Source: a phage | Sequence record: PV467749.1 | Strand: one strand, 5' to 3' | DNA: 64,000 nt | Shown: piece by piece, positions 46,504 through 62,562 of the stretch | Numbering within the stretch: the first letter of the stretch is position 1 | Layout of the letters: the number at the start of each line of letters is the position of its first letter | Notes under the pieces: model-generated | Seen by the model: only the letters and a program-made list of their open reading frames with translations | Told to the model about the DNA's origin: nothing | Databases searched by the model: none | Program-made: the position numbers and the translations under genes

Positions 46504-46605
46504 GATATTATATAGTTACATTTGTGCACCCTATGGGTTAGTGACGTTCTCGTCTTGATGTAAGTATTATGCCAGTACTGGCATTGTATGTCAACAATTA
46601 TTTTC

Positions 46606-46643: not shown

Positions 46644-46649
46644 ATAATC

Positions 46650-46793
46650 TTACATCTTGCGGATAATCTTAACAGTATCTTTCACCGATTTACCGTTTTG
46701 CTGACATTGCTCGATCATTGCGTATTGTTCTGCGGTCAGATCCTCGCCAGTTTTTGCCAGTACTGCATCGATGAATGAATCCAGTGCGATCAT
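46650..46793 (-). CDS. hypothetical small protein (below ORF-track cutoff)
   Basis: 47 aa ORF read by hand (MIALDSFIDAVLAKTGEDL...), terminator immediately 3'. Confidence 0.4.
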   Translation of the reverse strand: MIALDSFIDAVLAKTGEDLTAEQYAMIEQCQQNGKSVKDTVKIIRKM

Positions 46794-46884
46794 TTTGTTT
46801 CTCTCTTATGTTAAGTTAACTACTGTTTATAAAACTTATTATACAGTACTATCAAACTATGTCAATAGTACTGGTAATATATTT

Positions 46885-47097
46885 TTAGTTAATGATAGTC
46901 AGTGTAAAATTGTAATCACCTGCCTGGTATAGTACTTTGTCGCCGAACGTTCCAACACGTTTCATATTGCAATAGATACCCATAACACTTTTTACATCTT
47001 TGATATTCCGAACGCCAGTAATATCCTTGTTTAAATGATCGTGATCAGAAAATAAAACTTGTTTTGCATTTTTCAGTACAGTGCAGATATTAGCCAT
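46885..47097 (-). CDS. hypothetical small protein
   Basis: 70 aa; PeSL cassette upstream. Confidence 0.5.
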   Translation of the reverse strand: MANICTVLKNAKQVLFSDHDHLNKDITGVRNIKDVKSVMGIYCNMKRVGTFGDKVLYQAGDYNFTLTIIN

Positions 47098-47193
47098 TTT
47101 GTTTTCTCTCTCTGTTAGTGGGGAGAAGTTTTTCTCCCCTTGATGTAAACTATTATACAGTACTATAATCTATTGTCAAACTATTTTTTTATA

Positions 47194-47535
47194 TTATTCG
47201 AAATCTTCTGGACCGGACTGATAATCATCTTCACCGCATGCACTTTCTAACGTTTCACCAGTGTAGTCATCAGTTAGTGAGTCATCCTCATAGTTCACGT
47301 CTACGCCAGTGATGTAAAACTGGCTATCGTCTGGATCATTGAAATTAATTTTTTGGATGTTTACAATAACTGTATTGATACCCAGGACACCGCCATCAGC
47401 CGTTACAAAGTACTGATATTTTTCACAACCGCCTGAATTGAAACCGTAATTAATTTCGGCCCGACCATCATTTAAACGCAGTGCCTGGGCGATGATTTCA
47501 TTTTCAAAGTTAGATTGAGCAATTGAGATAGTCAT
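47194..47535 (-). CDS. hypothetical acidic protein
   Basis: 113 aa; strongly acidic C-terminus. Confidence 0.5.
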   Translation of the reverse strand: MTISIAQSNFENEIIAQALRLNDGRAEINYGFNSGGCEKYQYFVTADGGVLGINTVIVNIQKINFNDPDDSQFYITGVDVNYEDDSLTDDYTGETLESACGEDDYQSGPEDFE

Positions 47536-47617
47536 GATTTGTTTCCTTATTACCAGGGGAAACCGTTTCCCCTTTCGATGTAAAACATTATACGCTTATC
47601 AGGAAGTAATGCAAGTA

Positions 47618-48085
47618 CTATTTCACGTTAATTTCAAAGTACTGCTCTTTGATGTTTTCCTGTTGGTAAATCTCGTTTAATGCTTTAAGATCTAAAACCT
47701 GTTTACCTGCTGCCTGAATATACTTTTTAAGAGTCGCTAACAGCTTCTCAGGCGTGTTTGTAGTCTTACGTGTTGGGATCTTATCGTGCCCCATAGCGTA
47801 ATACTGCTTACGTGCTATAGTACTGATAACACTGCGGTACGGTTCCATGATCAGCTTGTCTGTGTATTCGTCGCTATCCCCAAACTTCATACCGTGGATC
47901 GCAAAGGTCATCATCATGCGGTCGTTATCGCGGATATTGTGGGGGCAGTCGGCAAGCTCGCGAGTCAGTGACATAGTGATCCCCACGTCGCCACCCAGCG
48001 GTAAAGGTCGGGCGATAAAGAAACCGTTAGGGAATACTTTCAGGAAGTTTTCTTGAACTGCTGCGACGAATTCGATGCTATTCAT
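47618..48085 (-). CDS. hypothetical protein
   Basis: 155 aa; PeSL cassette upstream. Confidence 0.55.
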   Translation of the reverse strand: MNSIEFVAAVQENFLKVFPNGFFIARPLPLGGDVGITMSLTRELADCPHNIRDNDRMMMTFAIHGMKFGDSDEYTDKLIMEPYRSVISTIARKQYYAMGHDKIPTRKTTNTPEKLLATLKKYIQAAGKQVLDLKALNEIYQQENIKEQYFEINVK

Positions 48086-48300
48086 AATTCATTTCCTTAA
48101 TTAGTGGGGGAAACCGTTTCCCCTTTCGATGTAAAACATTATACGCCTATTGAGATAGTTTGCAAGTACTTTTTAAAAATAGTTTTCAGTACTCAATACT
48201 TATATAATAGATACACTTCCGCACCCTGTGGGCTAGTGAGCTATCTCTCAATGAATATATAATAGCAAAATGGCTGACCGAAGTCAACCACTTTTTTCAT

Positions 48301-48435
48301 TTATTTTTTAGCTTTAAGTACTGCGGCCTTTCGCGTCATGCCTTGCTTGATGTACTCCTTTACTTTCGCTTTTTTAGCGTTTACCTTGTCTGCTTTCGTT
48401 TTAGGAGTACTGTAAATTATACCGTTAGGATTCAT
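48301..48435 (-). CDS. hypothetical small basic protein (below ORF-track cutoff)
   Basis: 44 aa Lys-rich ORF read by hand; start overlaps stop of 48436-48525. Confidence 0.35.
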   Translation of the reverse strand: MNPNGIIYSTPKTKADKVNAKKAKVKEYIKQGMTRKAAVLKAKK

Positions 48436-48525
48436 TTAAATCACCATAAAGAATAGATAGGTTACTAACAATGCCGCGATCAATGCACCGACCAGGGCCG
48501 AACTATAGTAAGCTAATGATTTCAT
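48436..48525 (-). CDS. hypothetical hydrophobic peptide
   Basis: 29 aa (MKSLAYYSSALVGALIAALLVTYLFFMVI); ATGA overlap with upstream gene. Confidence 0.3.
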   Translation of the reverse strand: MKSLAYYSSALVGALIAALLVTYLFFMVI

Positions 48526-48674
48526 TTTTTAGCCTGAAAATAATGTTTAATTTGAGCGGCGGTCAGTGCACAATTACGCAGGAAGTTTTCTGTATAACTT
48601 TTGCGAGTACTGAAAGAGAATTGACCTTTGCCGTTACCGATAGTAACATCAAACCGAGCGTTGTATTGTTTCAT
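48522..48674 (-). CDS. hypothetical small protein
   Basis: 50 aa from ATG 48672-48674 (AGGAG SD); first gene of a coupled trio. Confidence 0.45.
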   Translation of the reverse strand: MKQYNARFDVTIGNGKGQFSFSTRKSYTENFLRNCALTAAQIKHYFQAKK

Positions 48675-48755
48675 TTTGATTCTCCTGTTATTGGGGAGAA
48701 TCATTTCTCCCCTCTATGTAAAACATTATACGCGTTTAAAAACTAATTACAAGTA

Positions 48756-48902
48756 CTATTTTTTAGATTTACGCAAACTTTCTACCATCTCAGGAGTAAG
48801 GCCCGGCGGGTAGGAAACTACTTCATCAACGAAACGTAATGGGAATACCCCATCTAAGGTTGAACGTGCTTTCTTGTTAGTACTCTTTTTTGATGCTTTC
48901 AT
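48756..48902 (-). CDS. hypothetical small protein (below ORF-track cutoff)
   Basis: 48 aa ORF read by hand; PeSL cassette upstream. Confidence 0.4.
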   Translation of the reverse strand: MKASKKSTNKKARSTLDGVFPLRFVDEVVSYPPGLTPEMVESLRKSKK

Positions 48903-48971
48903 TTCATATTCCTTAATTAGTGGGGAGAATCATTTCTCCCCTTCATGTAAAACATTATACGCGTTTAAAAA

Positions 48972-49181
48972 CTAATTACAAGTACTATTTGAAAGTAAAT
49001 GCTCATACGCTGCATTAACTACGTTTTCAATAACCGACTGTACAGAAAGATCCCCCACGTCCTGGCTATAGTAGAAATTGCTTACAGTGGTGTCATCGTA
49101 TGCAAATACTTTACCAGGTACGGCATCAATCACATACATATTAACCTTTAAGATGTCGATCTTATCCTGTACAGTAAGCAT
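48972..49181 (-). CDS. hypothetical small protein
   Basis: 69 aa. Confidence 0.5.
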   Translation of the reverse strand: MLTVQDKIDILKVNMYVIDAVPGKVFAYDDTTVSNFYYSQDVGDLSVQSVIENVVNAAYEHLLSNSTCN

Positions 49182-49186
49182 ATTAA

Positions 49187-49459
49187 TTACCCTTTTAAGT
49201 ACTGGATTAAGTAGTCTTGTTGATCTTCGGTGATTGCCGCCATCTTCCCTAGTACTGGATTAATGATATAATCCCCGGTAACGTCCTGTAACGCATTCTC
49301 AGGCGGTGAAACGGCTGGGGTAGCCATAGCCATCGCCTGGACTTGTTCGACGCTGTATCGCTCATATAGGCGGCATTCTTCCGGTGTTAACATAGCATCA
49401 GTACGCTTCATCGGTTTAATGATGCTTTCGATCTCATTCAGTACTTGATTAACGTTCAT
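49187..49459 (-). CDS. hypothetical protein
   Basis: 90 aa. Confidence 0.5.
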   Translation of the reverse strand: MNVNQVLNEIESIIKPMKRTDAMLTPEECRLYERYSVEQVQAMAMATPAVSPPENALQDVTGDYIINPVLGKMAAITEDQQDYLIQYLKG

Positions 49460-49510
49460 GGTATAATCCCCAATATAAGCGGCCTGAATCGACCGCTAAC
49501 GATGTTTTGA

Positions 49511-49780
49511 TTAATAGGTGTATGGTTGACGCTCAAACAATGATTGCACGTTGTACGCCCCGCTTATGGGCTTCGCTGGTAAATCAATTTTATATTGTTC
49601 ACGCTTAAAGATAATAAAACGGCAATTGTTTTTAACATCAAAATTGATTGAACGTTCCAGGAGTTTTCCATCGTGCACAAATACAAGATAACCGCTTGCT
49701 ACTTGTTTTGTAGTACTGGTTGCAACCATAGACCGCCGAACATGTGTACCTGCGTCGATTAAAGTACTGATATTTTTCAT
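49511..49780 (-). CDS. hypothetical protein
   Basis: 89 aa. Confidence 0.5.
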   Translation of the reverse strand: MKNISTLIDAGTHVRRSMVATSTTKQVASGYLVFVHDGKLLERSINFDVKNNCRFIIFKREQYKIDLPAKPISGAYNVQSLFERQPYTY

Positions 49781-49860
49781 TATACGATCCTCTTAAGTTA
49801 ATTTAATTTCTTTCCCCTATGCAGACACTATATCAAAGTATCTGCATAAAGTAAAGCTAA

Positions 49861-50184
49861 TTAAAGATCTTTTTTGCGTTTAACATTCTGTACAGTACAA
49901 TGCAACGGGATATTAAGATCATTGCACAAACGAGTAAGGGAGGTTTCATCAGTATTAAGCCCGTCTACTGATTCCTTTAAGAGAGATAACGCCGTTTGTT
50001 GATATGCATCTTCATAGCCATAAGTAAATGATTCAACCGCCAGATCATTCAAACCGTTATCCAGTTCAACGCTTACATGACAAGAATGATAAGTATTGCC
50101 ATATGAATCAGTCCAACGTTTACCGTCAACATTGATTGCACGGATTGCAGCCAGGGAAACGGTGTTAATGATAGTTTTAGCCAT
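49861..50184 (-). CDS. hypothetical protein, paralog of 43350-43673
   Basis: 107 aa; shared RWTDSYGNTYHSCHVS and TYGY motifs. Confidence 0.55.
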   Translation of the reverse strand: MAKTIINTVSLAAIRAINVDGKRWTDSYGNTYHSCHVSVELDNGLNDLAVESFTYGYEDAYQQTALSLLKESVDGLNTDETSLTRLCNDLNIPLHCTVQNVKRKKDL

Positions 50185-50273
50185 TTTTGTATTCCTTAAA
50201 TTAATATGTTGTCTTGATAAAATCTATTATGCCAGTACTATCAAACTATGTCAATAGTACTGTGATAATATTT

Positions 50274-50417
50274 TTACTTACTTTTTGCTTTCTTTGCTGC
50301 TTCCACCTGGTCGGCCCATTCTTTACCCCATACTTGTAAATTATAATGGTACTGGCAAAGAGCAACGCCCCGCTTTAAACCAGTAATAGATTTCTGACCA
50401 CATTGACAAGTTTTCAT
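50274..50417 (-). CDS. hypothetical small Cys-containing protein (below ORF-track cutoff)
   Basis: 47 aa ORF read by hand (MKTCQCGQKS...); PeSL cassette upstream. Confidence 0.4.
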   Translation of the reverse strand: MKTCQCGQKSITGLKRGVALCQYHYNLQVWGKEWADQVEAAKKAKSK

Positions 50418-50502
50418 TTTAGTTTCCTTGTAGTGGGGAGAACCATTTCTCCCCTTGATGTAATGTATTATACTTTATTCGATTTACTTTGCAAGTACTT
50501 TT

Positions 50503-50730
50503 TTAATTTAATTCATCAAGGCAAAGGATACGCTCAACGCCCAAATCAGTTAAACTAATCGACGGCACTTGATAGGTTTCAATGTATGCTACACTTGCCC
50601 ACTGACCGAACTCATTAACGGCCCAGGTATTCATTGCATTTTGCAATTCCGCACCTTCCTTGTTGGTAATGACTGCAACTACTTGTTCGTTGCCAGTAGT
50701 ACCAGATACGCGAGTAATGATAATAGCCAT
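50503..50730 (-). CDS. hypothetical small protein
   Basis: 75 aa from ATG 50728-50730; track ORF extended through promoter. Confidence 0.5.
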   Translation of the reverse strand: MAIIITRVSGTTGNEQVVAVITNKEGAELQNAMNTWAVNEFGQWASVAYIETYQVPSISLTDLGVERILCLDELN

Positions 50731-50962
50731 TGTTTTGATTCCTTTGATTTTGAAGGAGAACCGTTTCCCCCTCTCGATGTAAAACATTATACGCTAATCT
50801 CTTAATCGTGCAAGTACTTTTTATTACTTTTTGCAAAATACTTTAAACGCTCTCAATCGCGTTCTTACAGCCTTAACGCCACCAGCTAGGGCAATGCATC
50901 AGATAATCAGTTTAATGCGTTAGAATCGTTTCTAGGCGGTGCTGGTGGCCTGGTAAACGATA

Positions 50963-52389: not shown

Positions 52390-52418
52390 TTGACAACTGC
52401 ATCCAGTACTGGCATAAT
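52390..52418 (+). promoter_or_regulatory. plus-strand sigma70-like promoter, antisense to gene array
   Basis: TTGACA 52390-52395, 17 bp spacer with CAGTACTG, CATAAT 52413-52418. Confidence 0.45.
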
Positions 52419-52499
52419 TACTACATCAAGACGAAACAGTCACTAACCCACCGGGTGCCGAGATCCGTCTATTAAATGATTCAGTACTGAAAAAGTAAC

Positions 52500-52518
52500 G
52501 GGGAGTTATTATCTCCCC
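52500..52518. terminator. bidirectional terminator
   Basis: Hairpin GGGGAG-ttattat-CTCCCC; U-rich on both strands; 3' of minus gene 52525-52746 and of the short plus transcript. Confidence 0.5.
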
Positions 52519-52524
52519 GCGTTG

Positions 52525-52746
52525 TTATTTTGTAAGGTATAAACAGAAGTCGCCTTTATTTGCTACGCCGCCAGTGTAACGCGATGAATAGTTAGAAACG
52601 TCCTGGACTTCTGCTATTACCAGGGTATCATCATTCAATTCGTCGCAGAAGCAAACGGCTGGATCTTGTACGCCGATTTTGTCGGCATGTTCCCGCATAG
52701 ATTTAACCAGTGCTTCCAGTTGGGAAAGAGTAGTGATATTAGCCAT
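52525..52746 (-). CDS. hypothetical small protein
   Basis: 73 aa from ATG 52744-52746; track ORF extended through promoter. Confidence 0.5.
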   Translation of the reverse strand: MANITTLSQLEALVKSMREHADKIGVQDPAVCFCDELNDDTLVIAEVQDVSNYSSRYTGGVANKGDFCLYLTK

Positions 52747-52832
52747 TTTATTTTCCTCATTACCAGGGAGAACCATTTCTCCCTTTGATGTAAACCATTA
52801 TACAGTACTGAAAACTAATTGCAAGTACTTTT

Positions 52833-54316: not shown

Positions 54317-54345
54317 TTGACAGCATTATCAAGTACTGGCATAAT
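54317..54345 (+). promoter_or_regulatory. plus-strand sigma70-like promoter
   Basis: TTGACA, 17 bp spacer with AGTACTG, CATAAT; followed by the ACCCACCGGGTGC box. Confidence 0.45.
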
Positions 54346-55528: not shown

Positions 55529-55891
55529 TTATTTGTAAATTTTGCCACTTTCTACCCATACCAGGAAACGAGGCATATTATCCCATGCATCTTGCTTTAA
55601 GTTTAAGCCGTGCAATTCCTCAGTTGTTGCCATGCCTGGGACTGGTTTACTATACACCGAGAATTTTTCGCCCATGTACTGATAAACCATCGTCAAATCA
55701 CTGGCGATCATCTTATGGATCATCGCATCAAGCATCACGGTCGCGGCGTATTGTTCACGCTTAAGCGGCAGCATTTTAATCAGTTCGCGGTATGCGTCAA
55801 TGTGAGTTTTAACCGTTGCCGCCGGAAGATCTTTCATCTCGTCGCGGAAGTTAACCAGGTTAGCAATAATTTTGGTGATTTGAGTCGCCAT
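55529..55891 (-). CDS. hypothetical protein
   Basis: 120 aa from ATG 55889-55891; track ORF extended through promoter. Confidence 0.55.
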   Translation of the reverse strand: MATQITKIIANLVNFRDEMKDLPAATVKTHIDAYRELIKMLPLKREQYAATVMLDAMIHKMIASDLTMVYQYMGEKFSVYSKPVPGMATTEELHGLNLKQDAWDNMPRFLVWVESGKIYK

Positions 55892-56199
55892 CGTTTTAAT
55901 CTCTCTTAAAAGTGAGTTAGGAGCGTTTCCCCCGTCTCGATGTAAAACATTATACGCCTTTAAACATAGTTTACAAGTACTTTCTACAAATACTTTTAAA
56001 ATAGTTTTCTTTCTATATAGGGAAACTATCATTCAGTACTGAATCAACCAAATCACTACTACACCCCGTAAAACGGCCTCAATCGCATTCTAACGCATTA
56101 TTACACCTAAGCTATACATTTGCACCATTCTAATCATTCCAGTGCGTTACGGGCCGTTTAAACGCGTTAAATTATTTTCAATTATTTTGTTTTTAGGTA

Positions 56200-56227
56200 T
56201 TGACTCAGTACTAAAAAAGCGTATAAT
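56200..56227 (+). promoter_or_regulatory. plus-strand promoter 1 of non-coding hub
   Basis: TTGACT, 16 bp spacer with CAGTACT, TATAAT. Confidence 0.45.
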
Positions 56228-56415
56228 TACTACATAGACGCGAGAAAGCGGATACCCCAGGGGGTGCGGAATTGTGCCCAAAATTCAAGATATAAAAAAA
56301 GGATACACTCCCGCACCCTAGCAGGTAAACGCACTTTCTCAGTACTGAAATATAGTACCATAGTCCGGCCCAGGATAGCAAGCAAATTAATTAAAACTTT
56401 TTTGCTTCCAGGGTA

Positions 56416-56443
56416 TTGCTTTATTTTTTCAGTACTGTATAAT
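56416..56443 (+). promoter_or_regulatory. plus-strand promoter 2 of non-coding hub
   Basis: TTGCTT, 16 bp spacer with CAGTACTG, TATAAT. Confidence 0.4.
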
Positions 56444-56540
56444 AGTTCCATCAAGTCGAGAAAGACTCAAGCCCACCGGGTGCATAGTTACGCCCAAAAT
56501 TCAGTACTGAAAAAATTTTTAAAAATATCCGTCCAGGTCG

Positions 56541-56569
56541 TTGACATTGCCCCCAGTTTATAAGATAAT
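56541..56569 (+). promoter_or_regulatory. plus-strand promoter 3 of non-coding hub
   Basis: TTGACA, 17 bp spacer, GATAAT; faces the iteron cluster. Confidence 0.45.
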
Positions 56570-56659
56570 GATTCCAGATTCAGAAAAATCTAACACCAGA
56601 TACTGCGGGGAAACTATCCCCACGCGGTAGGGGAACTATTGGAAAAAACAAAATAAAAT

Positions 56660-56810
56660 TTTGATTTAGCCGTCTATACTTCCAGACGTGTAACCATCTA
56701 GCCGTTTAGCCGTCCAAACGTCTAGCCATCCAGCCATCCAGAAATCTAGCCGTTTAGCCGTCTAGATGGATAGCCATCTTTACTTCCAGACTTCTGGAGG
56801 GCTAGACATA
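56660..56810. repeat. iteron cluster
   Basis: Short direct repeats TAGCCGT, CCATCCAG, GGCTAGA and twice TACTTCCAGAC within about 150 bp; no ORF. Confidence 0.55.
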
Positions 56811-57180
56811 TCTACGCCCAAAATCCATCCAGGGTAACTACACCCAAAATCCGTCAGTACTATACCATAGATCTATCTTTTGAAAGGGAGTATTCAGTAC
56901 TGCCATCATAGCCCTCACTATGTTACCCTAGGAGGATGAAGACTATCATGTAGTACTGAATACTGTTAGAGGGAATCCACCAGCTTGTGCTGGTGGCATA
57001 ATGCTTTAGATTAAAATCAGTACTGACACCATTCTGTTAATATCAGTACTGTTATTACGATTTTCATATGAGGTTCAAAAAGATGTACCACCACAGGAGG
57101 AACTATCTTTTCTGTACTGTCTCACGACAGGAGGTAGAGTAAATGAATTGTTCGCAGCAACTCATCTCTCTATGTAGAAC

Positions 57181-57209
57181 ATTATACAGTACTGAATCAT
57201 AATGTCAAT
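57181..57209 (-). promoter_or_regulatory. minus-strand promoter facing into the non-coding hub
   Basis: TTGACA 57204-57209, 17 bp spacer with CAGTACTG, TATAAT 57181-57186. Confidence 0.45.
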
Positions 57210-57875
57210 AGCTTTCTTTCATTATTCAGTACTGATATTCTTGAGAACTACCCGACTACAAACATCATTATATCCCACAAATCATAAACGTCCCAACGTA
57301 AATTTCAACTTTCGAAGAACCAACTTTTATTTCATAGGTACTCCAAAATTTTTAGGATCGAGATTTAGGATGGAGTACTAACCAACTTTTTGCTGGAGCC
57401 TCAAGGGGTAATTGAATTTTACCCCGAAGGGTAAAAGGGTAATTGAAATTAAGGTGAAAGTAATAATTCAGTACTAATCATTGCGTGATTACTTTTGATT
57501 ACATTTGATGTAATTTGCAAAATGGAAAAGGAGCTTGGAAACTACAAAGTACGGCAGACTTCCTCTGCCTACTTAGTGACATATCGACACCTTCAGTACT
57601 GAATACTTTTAGGGCAGTACTGAATCCTTCCCTAGCATTCTTGAGTAATCTTGTCTATAATAATCAGTACTGAATCATATATAATCATTCTGTGATTCTA
57701 CGGTGCTCATATAAATGTTTATATATGATTACTTATGACTACATATGATTACGGGGTTTAGCCTGGGGAGAATCCTAGTGATCGCATTTGTCCAGGCTGA
57801 ATTTTAACAATTCTTCTAATTGTTAAAGCCTGTCCAATGCTTTCCCTGCGGAGCTTCCCCTGTCTATATGTTGAA

Positions 57876-58082
57876 TTACTTCCTATATATAAGCATTAAC
57901 ATATAGTAGTACTGATTATGCTGTACATTCTCTTTAATATTATAAGGGTCTATAGCAATCTCGGTACATCTGTTAAATGCATATCTATTAAATGCCAGTA
58001 CTATTATAGATCTAATCCATGCTTGGTCAGTCGGTGGTAGTTTACTTATATAGTACTCTTTATAGTTTTTTATGTTCTGCAT
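57876..58082 (-). CDS. family C small protein
   Basis: 68 aa; conserved N-terminal K-[EY]-YY-x-KL and C-terminal Y..L.LIYR. Confidence 0.5.
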   Translation of the reverse strand: MQNIKNYKEYYISKLPPTDQAWIRSIIVLAFNRYAFNRCTEIAIDPYNIKENVQHNQYYYMLMLIYRK

Positions 58083-58093
58083 AGTATACCTTA

Positions 58094-58285
58094 TTATTTC
58101 AAAGTACCATATAGTACTCTTAATAGGAAGTAGTACGTATTAGAGATATCATTAGTAGTTAAAACAATCTTAGTACACATATTAAATTCGTATTGAGTCA
58201 TTGCCAGGGGGATTAAATTGTTAACCCATGCTTGTTCGTTTTCTTTGAGTTTACTTATATAGAAATCTTTATGTTCTTTATTCAT
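58094..58285 (-). CDS. family C small protein
   Basis: 63 aa; MNKEHKDFYISKL...LLRVLYG. Confidence 0.5.
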   Translation of the reverse strand: MNKEHKDFYISKLKENEQAWVNNLIPLAMTQYEFNMCTKIVLTTNDISNTYYFLLRVLYGTLK

Positions 58286-58487
58286 ATAGGAATAGTATAC
58301 CTATGATGCCGGAGTACATATTAGTACTGTTATTATTGTCGTTTGCGTTTAAGGTCATTTGAATACAATTATTGTAGCATAATCTGCCGAAATATGTATC
58401 AGTACTTAAAGGTGCTGTAGTCCTTAGAAACATTTGTTCTGTGGGGCTGAGGTGTTTGGAGTAGAATTCTTTATGTTCTTTATTCAT
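58278..58487 (-). CDS. family C small protein
   Basis: 69 aa; MNKEHKEFYSKHL; near-copy of 58861-59067. Confidence 0.5.
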   Translation of the reverse strand: MNKEHKEFYSKHLSPTEQMFLRTTAPLSTDTYFGRLCYNNCIQMTLNANDNNNSTNMYSGIIGILFLYE

Positions 58488-58492
58488 ATTAG

Positions 58493-58678
58493 TTAGTGTC
58501 TGTATATAAGTAATAGTAAGAATACGTACTGCACCTGTTCATCTTTAGTATTGAGTACTGTACGTATTGCGTCATGGAACAAGAATATAGTACTTGGGTC
58601 ATTAGAATTTAAGGGGTTTACGGGGACGGCGTGTTTGTAGTTCCCTTTAACAAATTGTATATAGTATTCTCTATGCAT
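58493..58678 (-). CDS. family C small protein
   Basis: 61 aa; MHREYYIQF...LLLLIYRH. Confidence 0.5.
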   Translation of the reverse strand: MHREYYIQFVKGNYKHAVPVNPLNSNDPSTIFLFHDAIRTVLNTKDEQVQYVFLLLLIYRH

Positions 58679-58679
58679 A

Positions 58680-58868
58680 TCAGTACCTATATATTAGGGC
58701 GAGAATGTAGTACAGTTTATATGTATTATAATCTGGGTTGATAGCACATAGTGTGTGGTAGTGGAATTGTTTGGTATTTTTCTTATCCTTGATATCTATT
58801 GGGATTTGTGGTATAAGCATTTGGGAGTTTAGATCGAGATGGCTTAAGTAGAATTCTTTGTTATTCAT
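58680..58868 (-). CDS. family C small protein
   Basis: 62 aa; MNNKEFYLSHL...ILALIYRY. Confidence 0.5.
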   Translation of the reverse strand: MNNKEFYLSHLDLNSQMLIPQIPIDIKDKKNTKQFHYHTLCAINPDYNTYKLYYILALIYRY

Positions 58869-59067
58869 AGAAGAATATTAGTCCCATTACGCCTGAGTAT
58901 TGAATATTTTTGTTATTGTTTTCTAAAGCTTCTAGAGTAATACGTATACAATTATTAAAGCAATCTCTGGCGTGTGGTGTATCTAAACGTAAAGGTGATA
59001 CACTCCTTAGAAACATTTGTTCTGATGCACTGAGGTGTTTGGTGTAAAATTCTTTCTGTTCGTTCAT
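58861..59067 (-). CDS. family C small protein
   Basis: 68 aa; MNEQKEFYTKHL. Confidence 0.5.
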   Translation of the reverse strand: MNEQKEFYTKHLSASEQMFLRSVSPLRLDTPHARDCFNNCIRITLEALENNNKNIQYSGVMGLIFFYE

Positions 59068-59077
59068 ATTGGCCTCT

Positions 59078-59266
59078 TTAGTACACGAAAGCTAGGTACA
59101 GTACATGATACAGTACTCGATGATAGCTATCAAAATCTAGTATACATGCTTTAGTGCACATAGTAAAGTACACTTTATCGTTTTGAGCATTGATACCGCG
59201 AGGTTTATCTAATAGATTAGTACTGAGGTACATTGGGAAATATTTTGTGTAGTATTCTTTATGCAT
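59078..59266 (-). CDS. family C small protein
   Basis: About 62 aa from the internal ATG (MHKEYYTKYF); track ORF 59078-59311 is longer. Confidence 0.45.
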   Translation of the reverse strand: MHKEYYTKYFPMYLSTNLLDKPRGINAQNDKVYFTMCTKACILDFDSYHRVLYHVLYLAFVY

Positions 59267-59267
59267 A

Positions 59268-59450
59268 TTAGTACCTGAATATAAGTAGGATAGTGTTATA
59301 TAATTGGTCATAGCTACTACTATTTTCTATACTGCGTTCTATGCAATTATTGAATCCCAGTACTGCCAAATCGTTATCCAGGGGGACTTTATATCTGGCG
59401 TAGTGTTCAAATATACTGGGGAGAAATTGTGTGTAGTATTCTTTGTGCAT
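59268..59450 (-). CDS. family C small protein
   Basis: 60 aa; MHKEYYTQFL...ILLIFRY. Confidence 0.5.
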   Translation of the reverse strand: MHKEYYTQFLPSIFEHYARYKVPLDNDLAVLGFNNCIERSIENSSSYDQLYNTILLIFRY

Positions 59451-59451
59451 A

Positions 59452-59643
59452 TTAGTACTTATATATTAGTAAAAGGATGTGATACAGTACTCTATTATAG
59501 TCCTCAATATATATCGAGGATTTAGTGCACTGAATGAAGTAGTCTTTTTCGTAGTCTTTTTCTATACTCAATTGTTTTGTTGGTACAAGGTGTTGGAGAT
59601 ACATTGGGAGTTTCTCTATGTAGTATTCTTTGTGGTTATTCAT
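59452..59643 (-). CDS. family C small protein
   Basis: 63 aa; MNNHKEYYIEKL...ILLLIYKY. Confidence 0.5.
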   Translation of the reverse strand: MNNHKEYYIEKLPMYLQHLVPTKQLSIEKDYEKDYFIQCTKSSIYIEDYNRVLYHILLLIYKY

Positions 59644-59651
59644 ATTATGTG

Positions 59652-59825
59652 TTATTTCGTGAAAACAAGGGTTAGTACTGCATAGTACAAGTCATACGTA
59701 TCTTTAGGGTTAATAGCACCTTTAATACATTCTTTCATTACTTCATTATAGATAATTTTAGTACTGAATGTATTGGATGTTACTATATCGGAATTAAGGT
59801 ACGAGAGGTAGAATTCTTTATACAT
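59652..59825 (-). CDS. family C small protein
   Basis: About 57 aa from the internal ATG (MYKEFYLSYL); track ORF 59652-59888 is longer. Confidence 0.45.
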   Translation of the reverse strand: MYKEFYLSYLNSDIVTSNTFSTKIIYNEVMKECIKGAINPKDTYDLYYAVLTLVFTK

Positions 59826-60477
59826 AGTTTGAAATATACGTAATGAGGTGATGAAATTTCTTATCAGTACTGATAAGTTCCTGTACATGTTTTGTTAGTT
59901 TGTACGCGTTTTTATAGAGTCCTGGATTATCGATTACAGTACTGTACATGAATTCTTCTTCCTCGGATAATTCTTTGTGTTCTAGTTCTTTGAGGAATTG
60001 CAGTACTGTATCAGTTTCGTTAGTACGTTGCTTTTGGAAGAAGTGCATGTTATCGTGTATTTTTTCTGAACCCATGCAGTACATATCGCCGATTTGGAAT
60101 TGTGCAGTACTGATATCATGGGTGCTATTACAATTCCCGAAGAAGTATACATTCCCGAAAGATAGAATTATAGTGCACGGGATATTATCCATGTGTATAT
60201 AGATAGATGCATTCTTTAGTGCTTTTGTGCTGGTATTAGTACTCAATACTTTTAAATCAGTATTATAGATATTAATAAAAGCAAGAGCTATATTATTTTT
60301 CTTCAAGTACGATTTGAGGTTCTTAGATACGAGAACATTTCTGGATTTTTTCTTTTTATTTCGTTTCTTTAGTACACACGGGTCGTAAGTATATGCTGGT
60401 GTAAAAGATTCTGCTTGAATACTGTTGAGGTATTTAAAGTGCTTAAGGTATTGTTTGCTGTGTGCATTAAGTTTCAT
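59818..60477 (-). CDS. family A-like protein embedded in family C array
   Basis: 219 aa; motif LSEEEEFMYSTVID (FM in place of FQ). Confidence 0.5.
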   Translation of the reverse strand: MKLNAHSKQYLKHFKYLNSIQAESFTPAYTYDPCVLKKRNKKKKSRNVLVSKNLKSYLKKNNIALAFINIYNTDLKVLSTNTSTKALKNASIYIHMDNIPCTIILSFGNVYFFGNCNSTHDISTAQFQIGDMYCMGSEKIHDNMHFFQKQRTNETDTVLQFLKELEHKELSEEEEFMYSTVIDNPGLYKNAYKLTKHVQELISTDKKFHHLITYISNYV

Positions 60478-60487
60478 TTGGTTTCCT

Positions 60488-60667
60488 TTATACAGATGCG
60501 AGAGCGAGGATTTCCCTGAAGGGATTATCTTTTGTTAGTGCGTGATGAATGCAGCTATTGAGATTAATATTTTTAGTACTATTAGTTGCCAGGTTGTAGT
60601 ACTTCACGAAGGTGTCGTACATGAAACGGTCTTTAATGCTTATGTGTTCTATATAGTATTCTTGCAT
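60488..60667 (-). CDS. family C small protein (below ORF-track cutoff)
   Basis: 59 aa ORF read by hand (MQEYYIEHISIKDRF...). Confidence 0.4.
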   Translation of the reverse strand: MQEYYIEHISIKDRFMYDTFVKYYNLATNSTKNINLNSCIHHALTKDNPFREILALASV

Positions 60668-60675
60668 ATTATTCC

Positions 60676-60864
60676 TTACATAGAGATGAGTTTCAGTACA
60701 TCAATATACATATAACGTTCAGATGACAGTACACGGGTAGTGATAATCTCAATCGATATATTTTTAATTCCATGTGCAGATGATTGATGGTGCTGAATAA
60801 ATGAGTTGTGCATACTTTGTTCTATGTGGTTTAGTTTATTGAAGTAGTACTCAAAAGTGTTCAT
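60676..60864 (-). CDS. family C small protein, subgroup VLKLI
   Basis: 62 aa; MNTFEYYFNKL...YIDVLKLISM. Confidence 0.5.
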   Translation of the reverse strand: MNTFEYYFNKLNHIEQSMHNSFIQHHQSSAHGIKNISIEIITTRVLSSERYMYIDVLKLISM

Positions 60865-60871
60865 GTCTACC

Positions 60872-61051
60872 TTAGATTAAGATTAGTTTAAGTACTTCTC
60901 TGTACGTGTACTTTTCGTTTTGTGCTTCTACTGTACACGAGAGTAGATAACGTTTTTTATCTCTTTTGTTCCCGACTGTGTAGTACCTTTGGAATTTATT
61001 ATAGTTGTATCTATCTTTGTGCTGGAGGTTATAGATATAGAATTCTTGCAT
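60872..61051 (-). CDS. family C small protein, subgroup VLKLI (below ORF-track cutoff)
   Basis: 59 aa ORF read by hand (MQEFYIYNL...YTYREVLKLILI). Confidence 0.4.
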   Translation of the reverse strand: MQEFYIYNLQHKDRYNYNKFQRYYTVGNKRDKKRYLLSCTVEAQNEKYTYREVLKLILI

Positions 61052-61059
61052 AGAGTACC

Positions 61060-61245
61060 TTAGATTGCTATCAGTTTGAGTACTTCAATATATGTGCGGT
61101 ACTCTGCTTTAATTAAATTTGTACACACTGTAAGGGAATTTCTTTGTATAAGTTTATTGCCGCTTTTATACGCATTTCTCCACACATAGAGATGAGATCT
61201 TTCAGGCATAGATAGTTTATTTGTATAGTACTCAAATGTGTTCAT
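61060..61245 (-). CDS. family C small protein, subgroup VLKLI
   Basis: 61 aa; MNTFEYYTNKL...YIEVLKLIAI. Confidence 0.5.
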   Translation of the reverse strand: MNTFEYYTNKLSMPERSHLYVWRNAYKSGNKLIQRNSLTVCTNLIKAEYRTYIEVLKLIAI

Positions 61246-61253
61246 ATATTACC

Positions 61254-61436
61254 TCAAATAGAGATTAGTTTAAGTACTTCTCTGTATGTGTACTTTTCGT
61301 TTTGTGCATCTCTTGTGCTTGTATATAGGTATCCTCGACGATATTTGTTGCTCCCGTTCTTGTAGTTGAATTCGAACTTATTGTAGATGAATCTATCGCC
61401 AGGCTGTAATTTACTTAAGTACAATTCAATGTTCAT
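61254..61436 (-). CDS. family C small protein, subgroup VLKLI
   Basis: About 60 aa from the internal ATG (MNIELYLSKL...YTYREVLKLISI). Confidence 0.45.
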   Translation of the reverse strand: MNIELYLSKLQPGDRFIYNKFEFNYKNGSNKYRRGYLYTSTRDAQNEKYTYREVLKLISI

Positions 61437-61446
61437 AGTATTCTCT

Positions 61447-61632
61447 TTACATATCAATAAGTTTCAGTACTGCTCTGTACGTGTACTTAGTTGTTAGTGC
61501 TTCTTTTATAGCAATACAGAAGTAATGTTGTTTGTCTCTTATACTACCGCGTTTGTAGTACCATACATTGGAGTTGTGGGTGTACTTGTCCCTGTCGGAT
61601 AGATTTTGGTAATAGTATAATATATGATTCAT
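61447..61632 (-). CDS. family C small protein, subgroup VLKLI
   Basis: 61 aa; ...YTYRAVLKLIDM. Confidence 0.5.
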   Translation of the reverse strand: MNHILYYYQNLSDRDKYTHNSNVWYYKRGSIRDKQHYFCIAIKEALTTKYTYRAVLKLIDM

Positions 61633-61841
61633 GGTAATGTAATTAGCCTTATTATGTTAAAGTACTCGGTCCCTGGTACACCTTGTAGAATATTATCAAC
61701 TACATTTTCTTGGTGCAGGATTAATACATTCGGTGCGGTTCTTTTAAGGTTTTTTAAAGTACTGTATTCTTGTTTAAGGATGAACTGTACATCTTTAGGG
61801 AGAATATCTAAGTAGTACTGGTGTATGTTCATAGTTTTCAT
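61629..61841 (-). CDS. family C small protein
   Basis: 70 aa; MKTMNIHQYYLDIL...IIRLITLP. Confidence 0.5.
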   Translation of the reverse strand: MKTMNIHQYYLDILPKDVQFILKQEYSTLKNLKRTAPNVLILHQENVVDNILQGVPGTEYFNIIRLITLP

Positions 61842-61852
61842 ATAGTACTCTT

Positions 61853-62038
61853 TTAGAACTTAAAGATGAGGTTCATGATAGATAAGTACTTAGTTTCAGG
61901 AAATTGATGTTCTATTGCATAACGTGTCTCCAGTCTGAAGTCAAATTTATAAAAGGGACTATTCATATCCATAGGTTCATTGGGAAATGAATCTCTGTAT
62001 TGTTTGTGCAGCTTACTACAGTAGAATTCTTTATACAT
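61853..62038 (-). CDS. family C small protein
   Basis: 61 aa; MYKEFYCSKL...IMNLIFKF. Confidence 0.5.
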   Translation of the reverse strand: MYKEFYCSKLHKQYRDSFPNEPMDMNSPFYKFDFRLETRYAIEHQFPETKYLSIMNLIFKF

Positions 62039-62039
62039 A

Positions 62040-62252
62040 TTAGTGCTCGATTAAAAGGGTTAGGATGTAATAGTATTGCATACTTTCTACCCCTTGTACA
62101 GCATTTCTTATTTTATTATTCCTGTACGAGTTCAAGAGTTTAGGACAATGTTTGAAGTTTATATAATTATTTTGTGTATACAGTAGGCTTTCTCGTAGAC
62201 CTTTTGTTGGTAGTGCATCAATGTAGTACTGTTCAATGTTCATAGTGTTCAT
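62040..62252 (-). CDS. family C small protein
   Basis: 70 aa; MNTMNIEQYYIDAL...ILTLLIEH. Confidence 0.5.
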   Translation of the reverse strand: MNTMNIEQYYIDALPTKGLRESLLYTQNNYINFKHCPKLLNSYRNNKIRNAVQGVESMQYYYILTLLIEH

Positions 62253-62476
62253 AGAGCTACCAGTACTAAGATTTTTGATAATTGTTTATTGCTATCCCCG
62301 CAGATGTTGCTGTGTAAAATACTCACTACAAGGGTATCAAGTGCATTGTTCAGCATAAGGTTACATCCAGTACTGTTATGTGTTTTTAGCTCAATTAGCC
62401 ACGAACTATCCGCGAGAAACTTCGCGTACTCTAGTTCATTTAGAGTATTAATGTAGTACTTAAGTGTAGTTGTCAT
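62249..62476 (-). CDS. family C-like small protein, first gene of array
   Basis: 75 aa; MTTTLKYYINTL...ILVLVAL. Confidence 0.45.
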   Translation of the reverse strand: MTTTLKYYINTLNELEYAKFLADSSWLIELKTHNSTGCNLMLNNALDTLVVSILHSNICGDSNKQLSKILVLVAL

Positions 62477-62562
62477 GTACAGTTCTCCTTATATTCCTTA
62501 TATTCCTTCTATAGTACATCAGTACTGAAAGGTTGTCAAGGGTTTTCTTTTTGGGGTAAATA

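Follow-up and report, generated by a model that had tools for sequence, protein, structure and literature searches.

The untranslated hub and its features

The window analysed here is a 64,000-nucleotide stretch of phage DNA (record PV467749.1), which on sequence is assigned to an Asteriusvirus (PBECO4/121Q/G17-like) jumbo coliphage, with 42 Asteriusvirus records matching it at 90–98%. Whichever threshold was tried, no ORF-free gap in the window is larger than that at window positions 56033-57875, hereafter the hub, in agreement with the original prediction, and all of the features that it listed are present to within about 3 nt. The elements of the region are given below by window position and strand, together with the left boundary of the direct terminal repeat (DTR).

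37096-37105, plus: left DTR boundary, ...GAAGTCGCTA^AGGTTACCC, cut after 37102; outside the hub interval
55949-55976, minus: σ70-like promoter of the first leftward DTR gene (55529-55891), TTGTAA-16-TATAAT, 10/12
56200-56227, plus: P1, outward σ70 promoter, TTGACT-16-TATAAT, 11/12; conservation 0.92-0.96
56234-56345, plus: predicted P1 transcript or leader, long-range stems GGGGUGCGG/CCGCACCC and GAGAAAGCG/CGCACUUUCUC
56300-56319, minus: terminator-like hairpin followed by seven Ts, for leftward transcripts
56416-56443, plus: P2, outward promoter, TTGCTT-16-TGTATAAT, extended -10; CAGTACTG in the spacer
56541-56569, plus: P3, outward σ70 promoter aimed into the array, TTGACA-17-GATAAT, 11/12
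56607-56648, plus: leader hairpin GGGGAAACTATCCCC and block CGCGGTAGGGGAACTATTGGAAAAAA, conserved across genera, directly before the array; z = -3.2
56668-56811, no strand assigned: tandem 8-bp units in one register, AGCCGTCT-like; 14 consecutive predicted metboxes at 56668-56779 and two more good boxes at 56788 and 56804
56814-56852, plus: conserved block ACGCCCAAAATCC...ACACCCAAAATCC (reverse complement GATTTTGGGTGT), common to Eneladusvirus and Kae01
56977-56996, both strands: back-to-back Chi octamers, CCACCAGC (Chi on minus), loop ttgt, GCTGGTGG (Chi on plus)
57018-57051, minus: hairpin from two CAGTACTG palindromes, then a T-rich tail
57181-57208, minus: inward σ70 promoter, TTGACA-16-TATAAT, perfect 12/12; CAGTACTG in the spacer
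57337-57370, no strand assigned: cross-genus conserved block (reverse complement TCCTAAATCTCGATCCTAAAAATTTTGGAGTACC), ~200-240 bp from the end
57405-57447, plus: GGGTAATTGAA direct repeats (57406, 57437) and hairpin GGGGTAA...TTACCCC
57486-57519, plus: inner TGATTAC repeats, 10-bp period, with ATTACA/TGTAAT dyad; 54-87 bp inside the terminus
57553-57580, no strand assigned: terminal inverted repeat GGCAGA...TCTGCC and right DTR boundary or physical end, ...CTCTGCCTACT^TAGTGAC, cut 57573/57574
57725-57752, plus: outer TGATTAC repeats, 10-bp period; 152-179 bp outside the terminus

None of the 29 ORFs of at least 18 aa in the hub is intact in all nine aligned genomes, on which ground hidden small genes were rejected. 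These included a pair of tiny ORFs at 57068-57202 with good Shine-Dalgarno sequences and the 99-aa ORF (g614) that is annotated in fEgEco12, in one DTR copy only, and is broken in six of the nine genomes. No tRNA/tmRNA genes or Rfam matches were found in the window. The DTR part of the hub is conserved at ~0.9 across the nine genomes, compared with 0.6-0.85 at the flanking CDS edges, and conservation falls to 0.5-0.6 just right of 57573. Hub conservation equals or exceeds that of the flanking genes, and stays at ~90% in comparison with a genome whose overall identity across the aligned region is just 73%; moreover, the hub architecture is common to genera at about 23-30% genome identity. Whilst the annotation of g614 could be taken to favour decayed coding sequence, or a neutral spacer with chance repeats, such a view is effectively refuted by the conservation data.

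The three plus-strand promoters and the opposing minus-strand promoter originally described were recovered, P2 by direct reading by eye, its score lying under the scanner threshold. P2 is the same module as the DTR early promoters. The window has 33 promoter-like sites scoring at least 11/12, where shuffles give 4.8, and those within the DTR are distributed as 18 on the minus strand and five on the plus strand; the total count of weaker promoter-like sites in the hub (9 against 8.5) is not beyond chance. The inward promoter is the first to be met from the right terminus, 365 bp in, and has equivalents in other genera, and an outward promoter equivalent to P3 is found in Eneladusvirus, Mimasvirus and Kae01. 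As judged from these sequences, strong σ70 early promoters converge to meet at the array in an arrangement that is conserved across genera.

The dominant motif of the region, which the original prediction did not mention, is the palindrome CAGTACTG, which has 12 copies in the hub; the window contains 63, where 0.9 would be expected. Both the GGGTAATTGAA direct repeats and the TGATTAC repeats that had been described were found again. TGATTAC occurs only eight times in the window, with four of these in the inner and outer sets, and the outer set forms an island of conservation (0.88-0.92) amid a variable stretch.

The terminal repeat, its physical end and its Chi sites

By homology to end-mapped relatives, the DTR is placed at window positions 37103-57573, giving a repeat of ~20.5 kb. 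The ends of G17, from read coverage (PMC6563267), and of fEgEco12, from PhageTerm plus restriction digests (PMC13070987), were mapped separately and fall on identical window positions, 37103 and 57573, with the left boundary corresponding to G17 position 1 and to the fEgEco12 DTR end. The perfect DTR in the G17 record is 20,668 bp, the same length as PhageTerm gives for Sharanji. Transferred from these relatives, the right physical end of the packaged genome is positioned at 57573/57574, a fixed-sequence end inside the hub whose junction, ...GCCTACT^TAGTG..., is identical in both. The hub is accordingly split into ~1.54 kb within the DTR and ~0.3 kb in unique DNA, and the DTR has a GC content of 40% compared with 32% outside. 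The original proposal of a packaging or regulatory site is supported by this placement of the end, whilst its other half, a replication origin, gains no positive support.

The sequence GTCRCTAAG occurs once per strand in the window, solely at the two DTR boundaries and in inverted orientation, such that the GTCGCTA^AG of the left boundary is the inverted partner of the motif at the right. In Kae01, RCTA^ likewise stands upstream of both PhageTerm-mapped ends. As a universal cut motif GTCRCTAAG is weakened by other strains, which have GCCACTA or CCCACTA; the core common to strains is only C-R-CTA^AG, a 7-mer with 12 copies in the window. The inverted C-R-CTA^AG at both boundaries is suggestive only of a terminase cutting motif.

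The perfect hairpin noted at the outset is present at 56977-56996 and consists of two opposed E. coli Chi octamers, with the exact octamer GCTGGTGG at 56989-56996 on the plus strand and at 56977-56984 on the minus strand. The G17 annotation treats this hairpin as an intrinsic terminator, which was rejected as the main reading, as neither strand has a U-run after it and the arms are exact Chi. The pair is located 577-596 bp from the right terminus, with the plus-strand copy 584 bp away, and Klebsiella phage Kae01 has the same pair 484-503 bp from its PhageTerm-mapped end. In total the DTR contains 11 Chi (9 + 2) against 0.21 + 0.065 expected, with none in the 43.5 kb outside; genome-wide in a relative there are 11 in the 21.3 kb DTR compared with 17 in 329 kb elsewhere, and the pattern is repeated in fEgEco12, G17 and Kae01.

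RecBCD coming from a DNA end must meet Chi from its 3' side (PMC12315714). The plus-strand Chi of the pair is correctly oriented for RecBCD entering at the right terminus, and nine minus-strand sites face the left (37103) end; only two sites face the hub-side end. From this orientation it is predicted that the Chi sites should tame the host DNA-end nuclease RecBCD. Precedents are provided by the Chi clusters near the ends of phage P1 and lambdoid LLS (Subramaniam & Smith 2022; Genome Res 2025, PMC12315714), which also have exact octamers enriched near ends and an orientation bias that fits RecBCD entry. Unlike these, the clusters described here are in the DTR of a virulent jumbo phage encoding its own RecA-like recombinase, and one pair forms a perfect hairpin with one Chi per direction.

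The 8-bp array and its predicted MetJ boxes

TRF reports a repeat at 56667-56765 with a period of 8, 12.4 copies and the consensus TAGCCGTC. The iteron cluster of the original prediction is thus confirmed as a set of tandem repeats and not as iterons, since it has an 8-bp period, is GC-rich and matches the boxes of the methionine/SAM repressor MetJ. The repeats had also been called easily melted, but the GC content of the array, ~50%, is the highest of any part of the hub. Measured downstream, its distance is 90-230 nt from P3 and ~370 nt from the minus-strand promoter; in the four records whose ends are defined, the array begins 744-751 nt from the end of the record. The number of boxes differs among strains, in register, with 11-15 in the longest run.

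A MetJ site is defined as at least two adjacent 8-bp metboxes, each with at least a quarter of the consensus score and together summing to at least the consensus score of 12.58 bits (Augustus & Spicer 2011). With the published matrix the array scores as 14 adjacent boxes totalling 102.8 bits, the sole passing site in the window, and a passing MetJ-type site is likewise unique within the 350 kb of a relative's genome. Shuffled controls gave at most 3 boxes or 19.8 bits, and the E. coli metJ-metB operator, used as a positive control, gave 4 boxes and 31.2 bits. The consensus unit of the array ranks 11th among the 65,536 octamers under this matrix, and the chance that any 8-bp tandem repeat would resemble a metbox array in some register is roughly 0.2-0.8%. 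By the published matrix and thresholds, the array hence represents 14-17 predicted MetJ operator boxes.

E. coli MetJ operators (consensus AGACGTCT) share with the array the 8-bp tandem phasing and a T-A junction giving CTAG, and the array passes the published thresholds with a per-box score of 7.3 bits, which is reported as equal to the 7.8 bits of the natural metJ-metB operator. The two differ in size, with 14-17 boxes in the phage against four in the metJ-metB control. Natural MetJ operators generally have two to five boxes, and the predicted array is several times longer than any host operator. They also differ in location, the phage array lying on a genome end and off met promoters, with no met-gene promoter at the array and no met gene nearby. 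A further difference is found at box position 3, which is mostly C in the array, whereas natural metboxes have A in 87% and C in 10% (PMC3228920).

Arrays of 9-15 boxes are also found near the ends of Eneladusvirus, Mimasvirus, the T7-like PGT2/phiKT, the T5-like Vibrio phage Pontus and a 63.5-kb IMG/VR contig. The distance to the genome ends is 0.04-0.9 kb in several DTR phage families, and in PGT2 the array is 40 bp from the end. Near-identical array stretches (21-mer TTTAGCCGTCYAAACGTCYAG) are shared by T7-like, T5-like and Rak2-like phages and the 63.5-kb contig, and in the sister lineages Kae01 and Muenster, and in T5, Fur-box-like palindromes occupy the array slot. The hosts of the array-bearing phages are E. 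coli, Salmonella, Yersinia, Erwinia, Serratia, Cronobacter, Klebsiella, Providencia, Vibrio and Aeromonas, and MetJ is reported in Enterobacterales, Vibrionales, Aeromonadales, Pasteurellales and Alteromonadales (PMC3228920). The one exception to these MetJ-bearing orders is the array phage XbC2, recorded on Xanthomonas.

Proposed working of the end and competing explanations

The hub is probably the untranslated terminal control region of the ~20.5-kb Asteriusvirus DTR, in which a physical end, convergent σ70 promoters, opposed Chi and a predicted MetJ array are brought together. The end would be made by sequence-specific cutting at the inverted C-R-CTA^AG of both DTR boundaries, an inversion compatible with staggered nicks, after which the repeat would be copied by strand displacement. 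After entry, RecBCD would load on the naked ends and meet correctly oriented Chi (one of two within 0.6 kb of the hub-side end, and nine facing the other end), whereupon degradation would switch to RecA loading and favour DTR-DTR recombination into a circle or concatemer. Host RNA polymerase would fire from the hub both inward, into early genes, and outward, giving ORF-free transcripts that run through the array toward the end. The array itself may recruit a cooperative host MetJ-SAM filament, which between the convergent promoters could serve as an anchor or roadblock; alternatively, the array may be a decoy, titrating MetJ and thereby relieving the repression of methionine/SAM synthesis.

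More tentatively, and at somewhat below an even chance, super-arrays of a host-repressor operator could stand beside the genome ends of fixed-end DTR phages in no fewer than three families that are unrelated to one another, namely the Rak2-like jumbo myoviruses, the T5-like Demerecviridae and the T7-like Autographiviridae, and a filament of host protein would be built on them. This proposal takes in, at the same joint strength, a filament that senses SAM and serves as an anchor or roadblock, whether to stop injection, to protect the end or to form a barrier between convergent promoters, or a MetJ-titrating decoy that takes effect as the genome replicates; with the array and the oriented Chi sites together, the genome end would be a device made from host recognition sequences. 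Several observations are counted against the best explanation, namely the two Chi facing the hub-side end against nine for the other, the commonness of the cut-motif core, the chance resemblance of some 8-bp tandem repeats to a metbox array, the C at box position 3 along with the siting of the array away from met promoters and the Xanthomonas record of XbC2, and a GC-skew switch at the hub for which it does not account.

The closest analogue of the hub is the untranslated Repeat Region 3 (iss region) of T5, at the inner end of the left terminal repeat, which is 1.2 kb long, runs 270 bp past the repeat and is conserved beyond the ORFs. In each case a long DTR has at its inner end a long, untranslated, repeat-dense region that overruns into unique DNA (by 270 bp in T5 and by about 300 bp in the hub) and is conserved above the repeat ORFs (~0.9 in the hub against 0.6-0.85 at CDS edges), with small, early, σ70-driven repeat genes that all read away. 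They differ in that the hub lacks the paired DnaA boxes of the IRD'/IRC' arrangement, and has the 8-bp metbox-like array, the Chi pair and CAGTACTG where T5 has DRC, DRD and palindromes. No homology of the hub to Repeat Region 3 was seen in the T5 sequence. T5-like Vibrio phages carry the same 8-bp array beside DRD-like repeats. Fur boxes at a threshold of at least 14/19 are absent from the hub and occur only in Kae01, Muenster and T5, and the Fur-box-like copies of T5 bracket its first-step shear point, 9618.

The T7 concatemer junction, or genome-end region, comprises a φOR or φOL promoter, the SRL/SRR short-repeat arrays, pacB and the terminal repeat. As T7 is generally understood, it shares with the hub a promoter aimed at the repeat end through short direct repeats, strong tandem σ70 early promoters close to the end, and a fixed-sequence end formed with duplication of the repeat. 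T7 has its own RNA polymerase, a 160-bp repeat and short repeats that are neither 8-bp phased nor metbox-like, whereas the hub arrays are within a 20-kb repeat and the promoters are of the host type. By analogy, the hub would work like the T5 inner-end untranslated region and the T7 concatemer junction.

The likeness to T5 raises the thought of a T5-type injection stop, with the DTR entering first and pausing at the hub on host proteins (MetJ) bound to the array, until early DTR proteins release the block. Position and anatomy are those of Repeat Region 3, with all repeat genes reading away from the hub; Davison proposed host DnaA boxes as the T5 injection stop, Kae01, Muenster and T5 hold Fur-box-like repeats in the same slot, and the nine co-oriented Chi facing the 37103 end are as expected if that end enters first and unprotected. 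However, two-step transfer is without evidence in any Rak2-like phage, the hub has no DnaA boxes, no homologues of T5 pre-early genes were identified in a limited Pfam test, and the PGT2 array, at 40 bp from the end, cannot be where a first-step segment stops, such that this explanation is thought unlikely. Of similarly low probability is a pac-like packaging array bound by a phage protein (a small terminase subunit, a ribbon-helix-helix (RHH) regulator or an end-binding protein) instead of by host MetJ. The closeness of arrays to the ends in several DTR families and the systematic C at position 3, unlike natural metboxes, would fit such a protein, and the TGATTAC repeats (10 bp) on either side of the cut likewise point to cutting guided by a protein. 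Against it, phages with no evident shared packaging proteins have near-identical array stretches, the host range follows the MetJ distribution, and the ten largest DTR proteins, in a limited comparison with Pfam, include no RHH family.

A hub that is mainly a non-coding RNA locus, with P1-P3 and leftward transcripts serving as antisense regulators of neighbours or as protein sponges, is doubtful, if slightly less so. The P1 leader folds with an MFE of -38.4 kcal/mol (z = -5.17; 0/200 shuffles as stable) and the predicted minus-strand array transcript with z = -6.35, the DTR has further promoter-leader modules of the same family, whose paralogous copies show compensatory changes in their stems, and in the related jumbo phage PA5oct the DTR genes are early and the DTR yields two abundant ncRNAs. 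However, the P1 leader has no Rfam match and the locus no tRNA, the hub sequences are too conserved for a covariation test, the plus-strand transcripts have no clear intrinsic terminators, and arrays near T7-like genome ends have no upstream promoter. A CsrA-sponge reading of the minus-strand array transcript, based on GGA motifs, was dropped, there being no enrichment and T7-like arrays lacking an upstream promoter.

Least probable of these alternatives is a replication origin, either with convergent host-polymerase transcription into the array giving an R-loop or primer, as in T4 oriF/ori(uvsY) and T7 φOL/φOR, or with iterons for a phage initiator. It would draw on the strong convergent promoters on both sides of the array, the 25-nt AT-rich tract at 56643-56667 that precedes the array, and the secondary origins that T7 has at end-proximal promoters. 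The sole origin-like signal is the cumulative GC-skew minimum of a 350-kb relative, at kb 322, which corresponds to the hub. As evidence for an origin this was set aside, as the profile mostly tracks gene orientation; a 4.6-kb block of minus-strand genes right of the hub nevertheless has plus-strand-type skew, which gene orientation does not explain. Moreover, the arms of the profile, 24 kb rising against 326 kb falling, are unlike bidirectional replication. The hub does not look like an iteron-type origin, with iterons of ~17-22 bp in helical phase and an adjacent initiator, as its period is 8 bp, the GC-rich array matches MetJ boxes and DnaA boxes (TTWTNCACA) number 0 in the hub and 12 elsewhere in the window. 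Nor does the resemblance to T4 oriF/ori(uvsY) that had been drawn hold, since the MotA-dependent middle promoter and AT-rich unwinding element were not seen, and the hub instead has canonical σ70 -35/-10 promoters with the GC-rich array downstream. The ten largest DTR proteins gave only a GNAT acetyltransferase and a weak kinase-like match in Pfam (a limited test), with no replication-initiator, RHH or SAM-related family, and the same array lies 40-114 bp from the end of a T7-like phage.

Terminal repeats of ~20 kb have already been reported for several Asteriusvirus and related jumbo phages, whilst the contents of the ends are not described in the literature found. What is added here is an end placed to the nucleotide, by homology, and a proposed cut motif. 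No other non-coding DNA in the region is as constrained as the end-piece, the architecture of which is conserved across the sampled Rak2-like genera. If the Chi sites act as predicted, these phages would exploit RecBCD to recombine their repeats, rather than only inhibit it. Should a MetJ super-operator be confirmed, no earlier example is known to us of a phage that recruits or titrates the methionine/SAM repressor. The predicted MetJ boxes would also bear on the long-standing question of what the T5 injection-stop region binds, and the presence of the array at T7-like and T5-like ends suggests a general, hitherto unrecognised feature of fixed-end genomes.

A genome end within the hub

The hub, an ORF-free stretch at 56033-57875, is real as a feature and under strong constraint, and most plausibly represents the terminal control region of a direct terminal repeat (DTR), where a genome end would be combined with Chi end-protection/recombination signals, early promoters and a predicted host-repressor array. 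Together with its flanks it matches 42 phage records at 90-98% identity, all of them from the genus Asteriusvirus, either jumbo coliphages of the PBECO4/121Q/G17 type or Salmonella phages, and 348-386 kb in genome length. G17 is recorded as a linear genome whose direct terminal repeat, perfect over 20,668 bp, was inferred by its authors from read coverage (PMC6563267). For fEgEco12, PhageTerm gave a repeat of 20,993 bp, and restriction digests bore this out (PMC13070987). The PhageTerm repeat of Sharanji is also 20,668 bp. The ends of G17 and fEgEco12 both fall at identical window positions, 37103 and 57573, and in four end-defined records the distance from the record end to the start of the 8-bp repeat array is 744-751 nt. 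The hub therefore takes in the final 1.54 kb of the repeat and runs on for about 0.3 kb into unique DNA.

The predicted DTR (37103-57573) is a compositional island, with 40% GC against 32%, and its genes all lie on the minus strand, pointing away from the hub. The hub is the largest gap without ORFs in the window, and no small ORF among the 29 it contains stays intact across all nine aligned genomes. Neither tRNA genes nor Rfam families were found in the window. In the nine-genome alignment the DTR portion of the hub is about 90% conserved, equal to or above its flanking genes, even though EJP2 is only 73% identical overall over the aligned region, and conservation drops to 0.5-0.6 just beyond 57573. 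A 99-aa ORF of fEgEco12, g614 (window 56264-56563), is annotated in the right DTR copy and absent from the annotation of the identical left copy; it is probably spurious, since it is broken in six of nine related genomes.

The left junction reads GAAGTCGCTA/AGGTTACC and the right junction, on the opposite strand, ATGTCACTA/AGTAGGCA, the slash marking the boundary. Each strand of the 64-kb window carries a single GTCRCTAAG; the two copies stand precisely at the DTR boundaries, inverted relative to each other, and RCTA/ also precedes both PhageTerm-mapped ends of the Klebsiella phage fENko-Kae01 (Kae01). The cut motif is suggestive rather than proven, because only C-R-CTA/AG is common to all strains compared and this 7-mer is not rare. 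If opposite strands were nicked at the two boundaries, the resulting 3'-OH groups would lie outside the repeat, as a staggered-nick and strand-displacement model of repeat duplication would require.

A common order of elements, read inward from the end, is found in Asteriusvirus, Eneladusvirus, Mimasvirus, Kae01 and Muenster.

Elements of the terminal architecture, read inward from the end
1. Terminal stretch of ~1.2-1.8 kb with at most one small annotated ORF
2. Block TCCTAAATCTCGATYCTARAAATTTTGGAGTACC
3. Inward σ70 promoter, ~300-390 bp from the end
4. Block GATTTTGGGTGTA
5. Repeat "slot", the position of the array in Asteriusvirus
6. Block CGCGGWAGGGGAACTAWTGGAAAA
7. Outward promoter TTGACA-17-GATAAT

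The records of pEa_SNUABM_47, XbC2 and Kae01, from three different genera, share the opening TATCT(T/G)(T/C)TC at position 1; of the three, Kae01 is the one with a mapped end, a hint that the records from Eneladusvirus and Mimasvirus likewise begin at true termini. The fHe-Yen9-04 record has a different starting point.

Chi sites of the terminal repeat

The perfect hairpin, the GGGTAATTGAA repeats (about 57400-57460) and both TGATTAC repeat sets (near 57480-57520 and 57700-57760) were all found where they had been placed. The hairpin (56977-56996), CCACCAGC-ttgt-GCTGGTGG, carries the E. coli Chi octamer once on each strand. The DTR contains nine minus-strand and two plus-strand Chi sites, no two in the same sequence context, where 0.21 and 0.065 would be expected, and there are none in the 43.5 kb of the window outside it. 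In the closest relative (350 kb) 11 Chi lie in the 21.3-kb DTR and 17 in the remaining 329 kb, and the enrichment is repeated in G17, fEgEco12 and Kae01, the last of which has the same Chi pair 484-503 bp from its mapped end.

Chi sites in the DTR interior
38464-50941, 8 minus and 1 plus: scattered over genes and spacers, contexts unique
50879/50941, both strands: second inverted Chi pair, 62 bp apart

By the orientation rule restated in PMC12315714, RecBCD entering from the 37103 end would be faced by the nine minus-strand sites, and RecBCD entering from the 57573 end by the hairpin's plus-strand arm, at a distance of 584 bp. The cluster joins a kind already known from the terminal Chi clusters of phage P1 and the lambdoid phage LLS (PMC12315714).

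The loop of the Chi hairpin (56985-56988) is ttgt in the window, PBECO4 and ph0011 and acaa in G17, fEgEco12 and 121Q; it is inverted with the arms intact, as if the segment flips via intra-hairpin recombination.

A predicted MetJ operator array

The repeats at 56668-56811 had been described as iterons in easily melted DNA. The array itself is real (TRF: 56667-56765, 8-bp unit, 12.4 copies), but its units look like operator boxes of the MetJ repressor, to which binding is predicted from sequence, and at about 50% GC it is the GC maximum of the hub, contrary to easy melting. Set in the register AGNCNTCY, the array is built of AGCCGTCT, AGACGTGT, AAACGTCT, AGCCATCC and the like; MetJ operators consist of tandem 8-bp metboxes with the consensus AGACGTCT. 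When the window was scanned with the weight matrix and site criteria published by Augustus & Spicer (PMC3228920), exactly one site passed, with a shuffle maximum of 3 boxes and 19.8 bits.

Predicted metboxes (Augustus & Spicer matrix)
56668-56779: 14 in-register boxes, 102.8 bits
56788 and 56804: two further good boxes beyond the 14-box run

The array site is also unique in the relative's 350 kb, where the runner-up has 2 boxes and 16.9 bits, and a control scan of 6 kb of E. coli K-12 found the metJ-metB operator as the sole site (4 boxes, 31.2 bits). Per box the phage array, at 7.3 bits, matches that operator, at 7.8. The array consensus unit ranks 11th among 65,536 octamers, and the chance that an arbitrary 8-bp tandem unit would look as good in some rotation is about 0.15%. 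The longest run varies from 11 to 15 predicted boxes depending on the strain, and the changes stay in register. Position 3 of the array boxes is mostly C, a base found there in 10% of natural boxes against 87% for A, and the array is not at a met promoter. The MetJ assignment, a predicted function, is the most interesting and most testable claim made here.

Distant BLAST and an exact 21-mer scan with TTTAGCCGTCYAAACGTCYAG recovered arrays of 9-15 predicted boxes in several phage groups, so that the array crosses phage families, sitting near genome ends.

Predicted metbox arrays in other phages
Eneladusvirus: record positions 38-144 or ~725-805
Mimasvirus: XbC2 and GAP32
T7-like phages: PGT2, 40-114 bp from both ends; also phiKT
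Klebsiella phage KPV811: ~70-140 bp from one end
T5-like Vibrio and Aeromonas phages: Pontus, 15 boxes, 111.7 bits
IMG/VR contig of 63.5 kb: at most ~170 bp from the contig end

The hosts are nearly all in MetJ-bearing orders (per PMC3228920), the exception being XbC2, which is recorded on Xanthomonas. The literature search found no mention of metboxes on phage genomes; as far as the literature searched shows, the DTR of the relatives is already published, and its end anatomy, Chi loading and metbox array are not.

Instead of metboxes, Kae01 and Muenster have Fur-box-like palindromes (15-16/19 Fur-box matches) in the slot.

Fur-box-like palindromes, e.g. GAGAATGATAATGATTCTC
Kae01 (L006): 700-800
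Muenster (L011, reverse complement): 780-1330
T5 (L018): 9574-9634, flanking on both sides the first-step-transfer shear point at 9618 (shear point: Davison)

Promoters, known systems and the origin question

The promoters originally proposed in the hub are all present.

56200-56227, plus: P1, 11/12 against the σ70 consensus
56416-56443, plus: P2, extended -10 TGTATAAT, weak -35
56541-56569, plus: P3, 11/12
57208-57181, minus: opposing promoter, 12/12, perfect σ70 consensus

Promoter sites of at least 11/12 are seven-fold over chance in the window and concentrated in the DTR, where 18 lie on the minus strand; they have the consensus TTGACA-N9-AGTACTG-TATAAT in common. Genome-wide there are only seven such plus-strand sites, five of them in or adjoining the DTR. 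No ORF lies downstream of P1, P2 or P3; the predicted P1 transcript has an unusually stable fold (z = -5.2), as does the minus strand of the array (z = -6.35). The related jumbo phage PA5oct has early DTR genes and two abundant ncRNAs from its DTR. Transcription of the hub is predicted.

The alternative, that the hub is a replication origin, did not hold up when the hub was tested as an iteron origin and as a T4-type transcription-primed origin, and of the original proposal of an origin or a packaging/regulatory site it is the packaging/regulatory half, through the genome end placed by homology to end-mapped relatives, that is supported. A single signal is origin-like, the minimum of the genome-wide cumulative GC skew, which falls at the hub; the overall skew profile tracks gene orientation. 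As a terminal control region, the hub has its closest analogue in Repeat Region 3 of T5, an untranslated, repeat-dense 1.2 kb at the inner end of the terminal repeat that extends 270 bp past it and is conserved above the level of ORFs. The hub shares no homology with that region, and DnaA boxes are absent from it. The hub also resembles the T7 concatemer junction, where a promoter is directed through short-repeat arrays at the repeat end and early σ70 promoters lie in tandem close to the terminus, but it is without a phage RNA polymerase.

Right of the hub, 4.6 kb of packed small minus-strand genes (57876-62500) have a GC skew of +0.16, against -0.08 to -0.13 in all other minus-strand gene blocks examined, and the sign therefore switches at the DTR boundary and not at the orientation change (~62.5 kb).

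Strong plus-strand promoter and leader modules of the P1/P2 family at 52390-52545 and 54317-54345, amid the otherwise minus-strand DTR, may encode short RNAs. The leader hairpin has compensatory stem changes in paralogous copies (CGC-GAGAAA-GCG, GTC-GAGAAA-GAC, GAC-GAAACA-GTC), and a terminator-like hairpin closes the 52390 module. Some 10-30 nt past many DTR early promoters, after a conserved CATCAAG start, stands a hairpin of the form GGGGAGAA-loop-TTCTCCCC (e.g. 40350-40420, 40850-40910, 52770-52810 and similar DTR spacers); these hairpins are terminators in the G17 annotation, yet lie at predicted transcript 5' ends and have no U-runs.

Pfam families among the ten largest DTR proteins
45592-45948, minus: GNAT acetyltransferase (E = 4e-9)
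41355-41996, minus: weak protein-kinase-like match, below cut-off
The rest: orphans

No other palindromic hexamer is nearly as over-represented as AGTACT, which has 274 copies in the window against ~19 expected (CAGTACTG, e.g. 56034, 56340, 56430, 57187 and 57594, and across the whole window). Its core presumably corresponds to the middle of the site bound by E. coli SlmA. The enrichment affects genes and intergenic DNA alike, the motif lying in the promoter spacer within the DTR; the relative's 350 kb has 918 copies, at peak density in and beside the DTR, and AGTACT is frequent in the terminal regions of other Rak2-like genera too.
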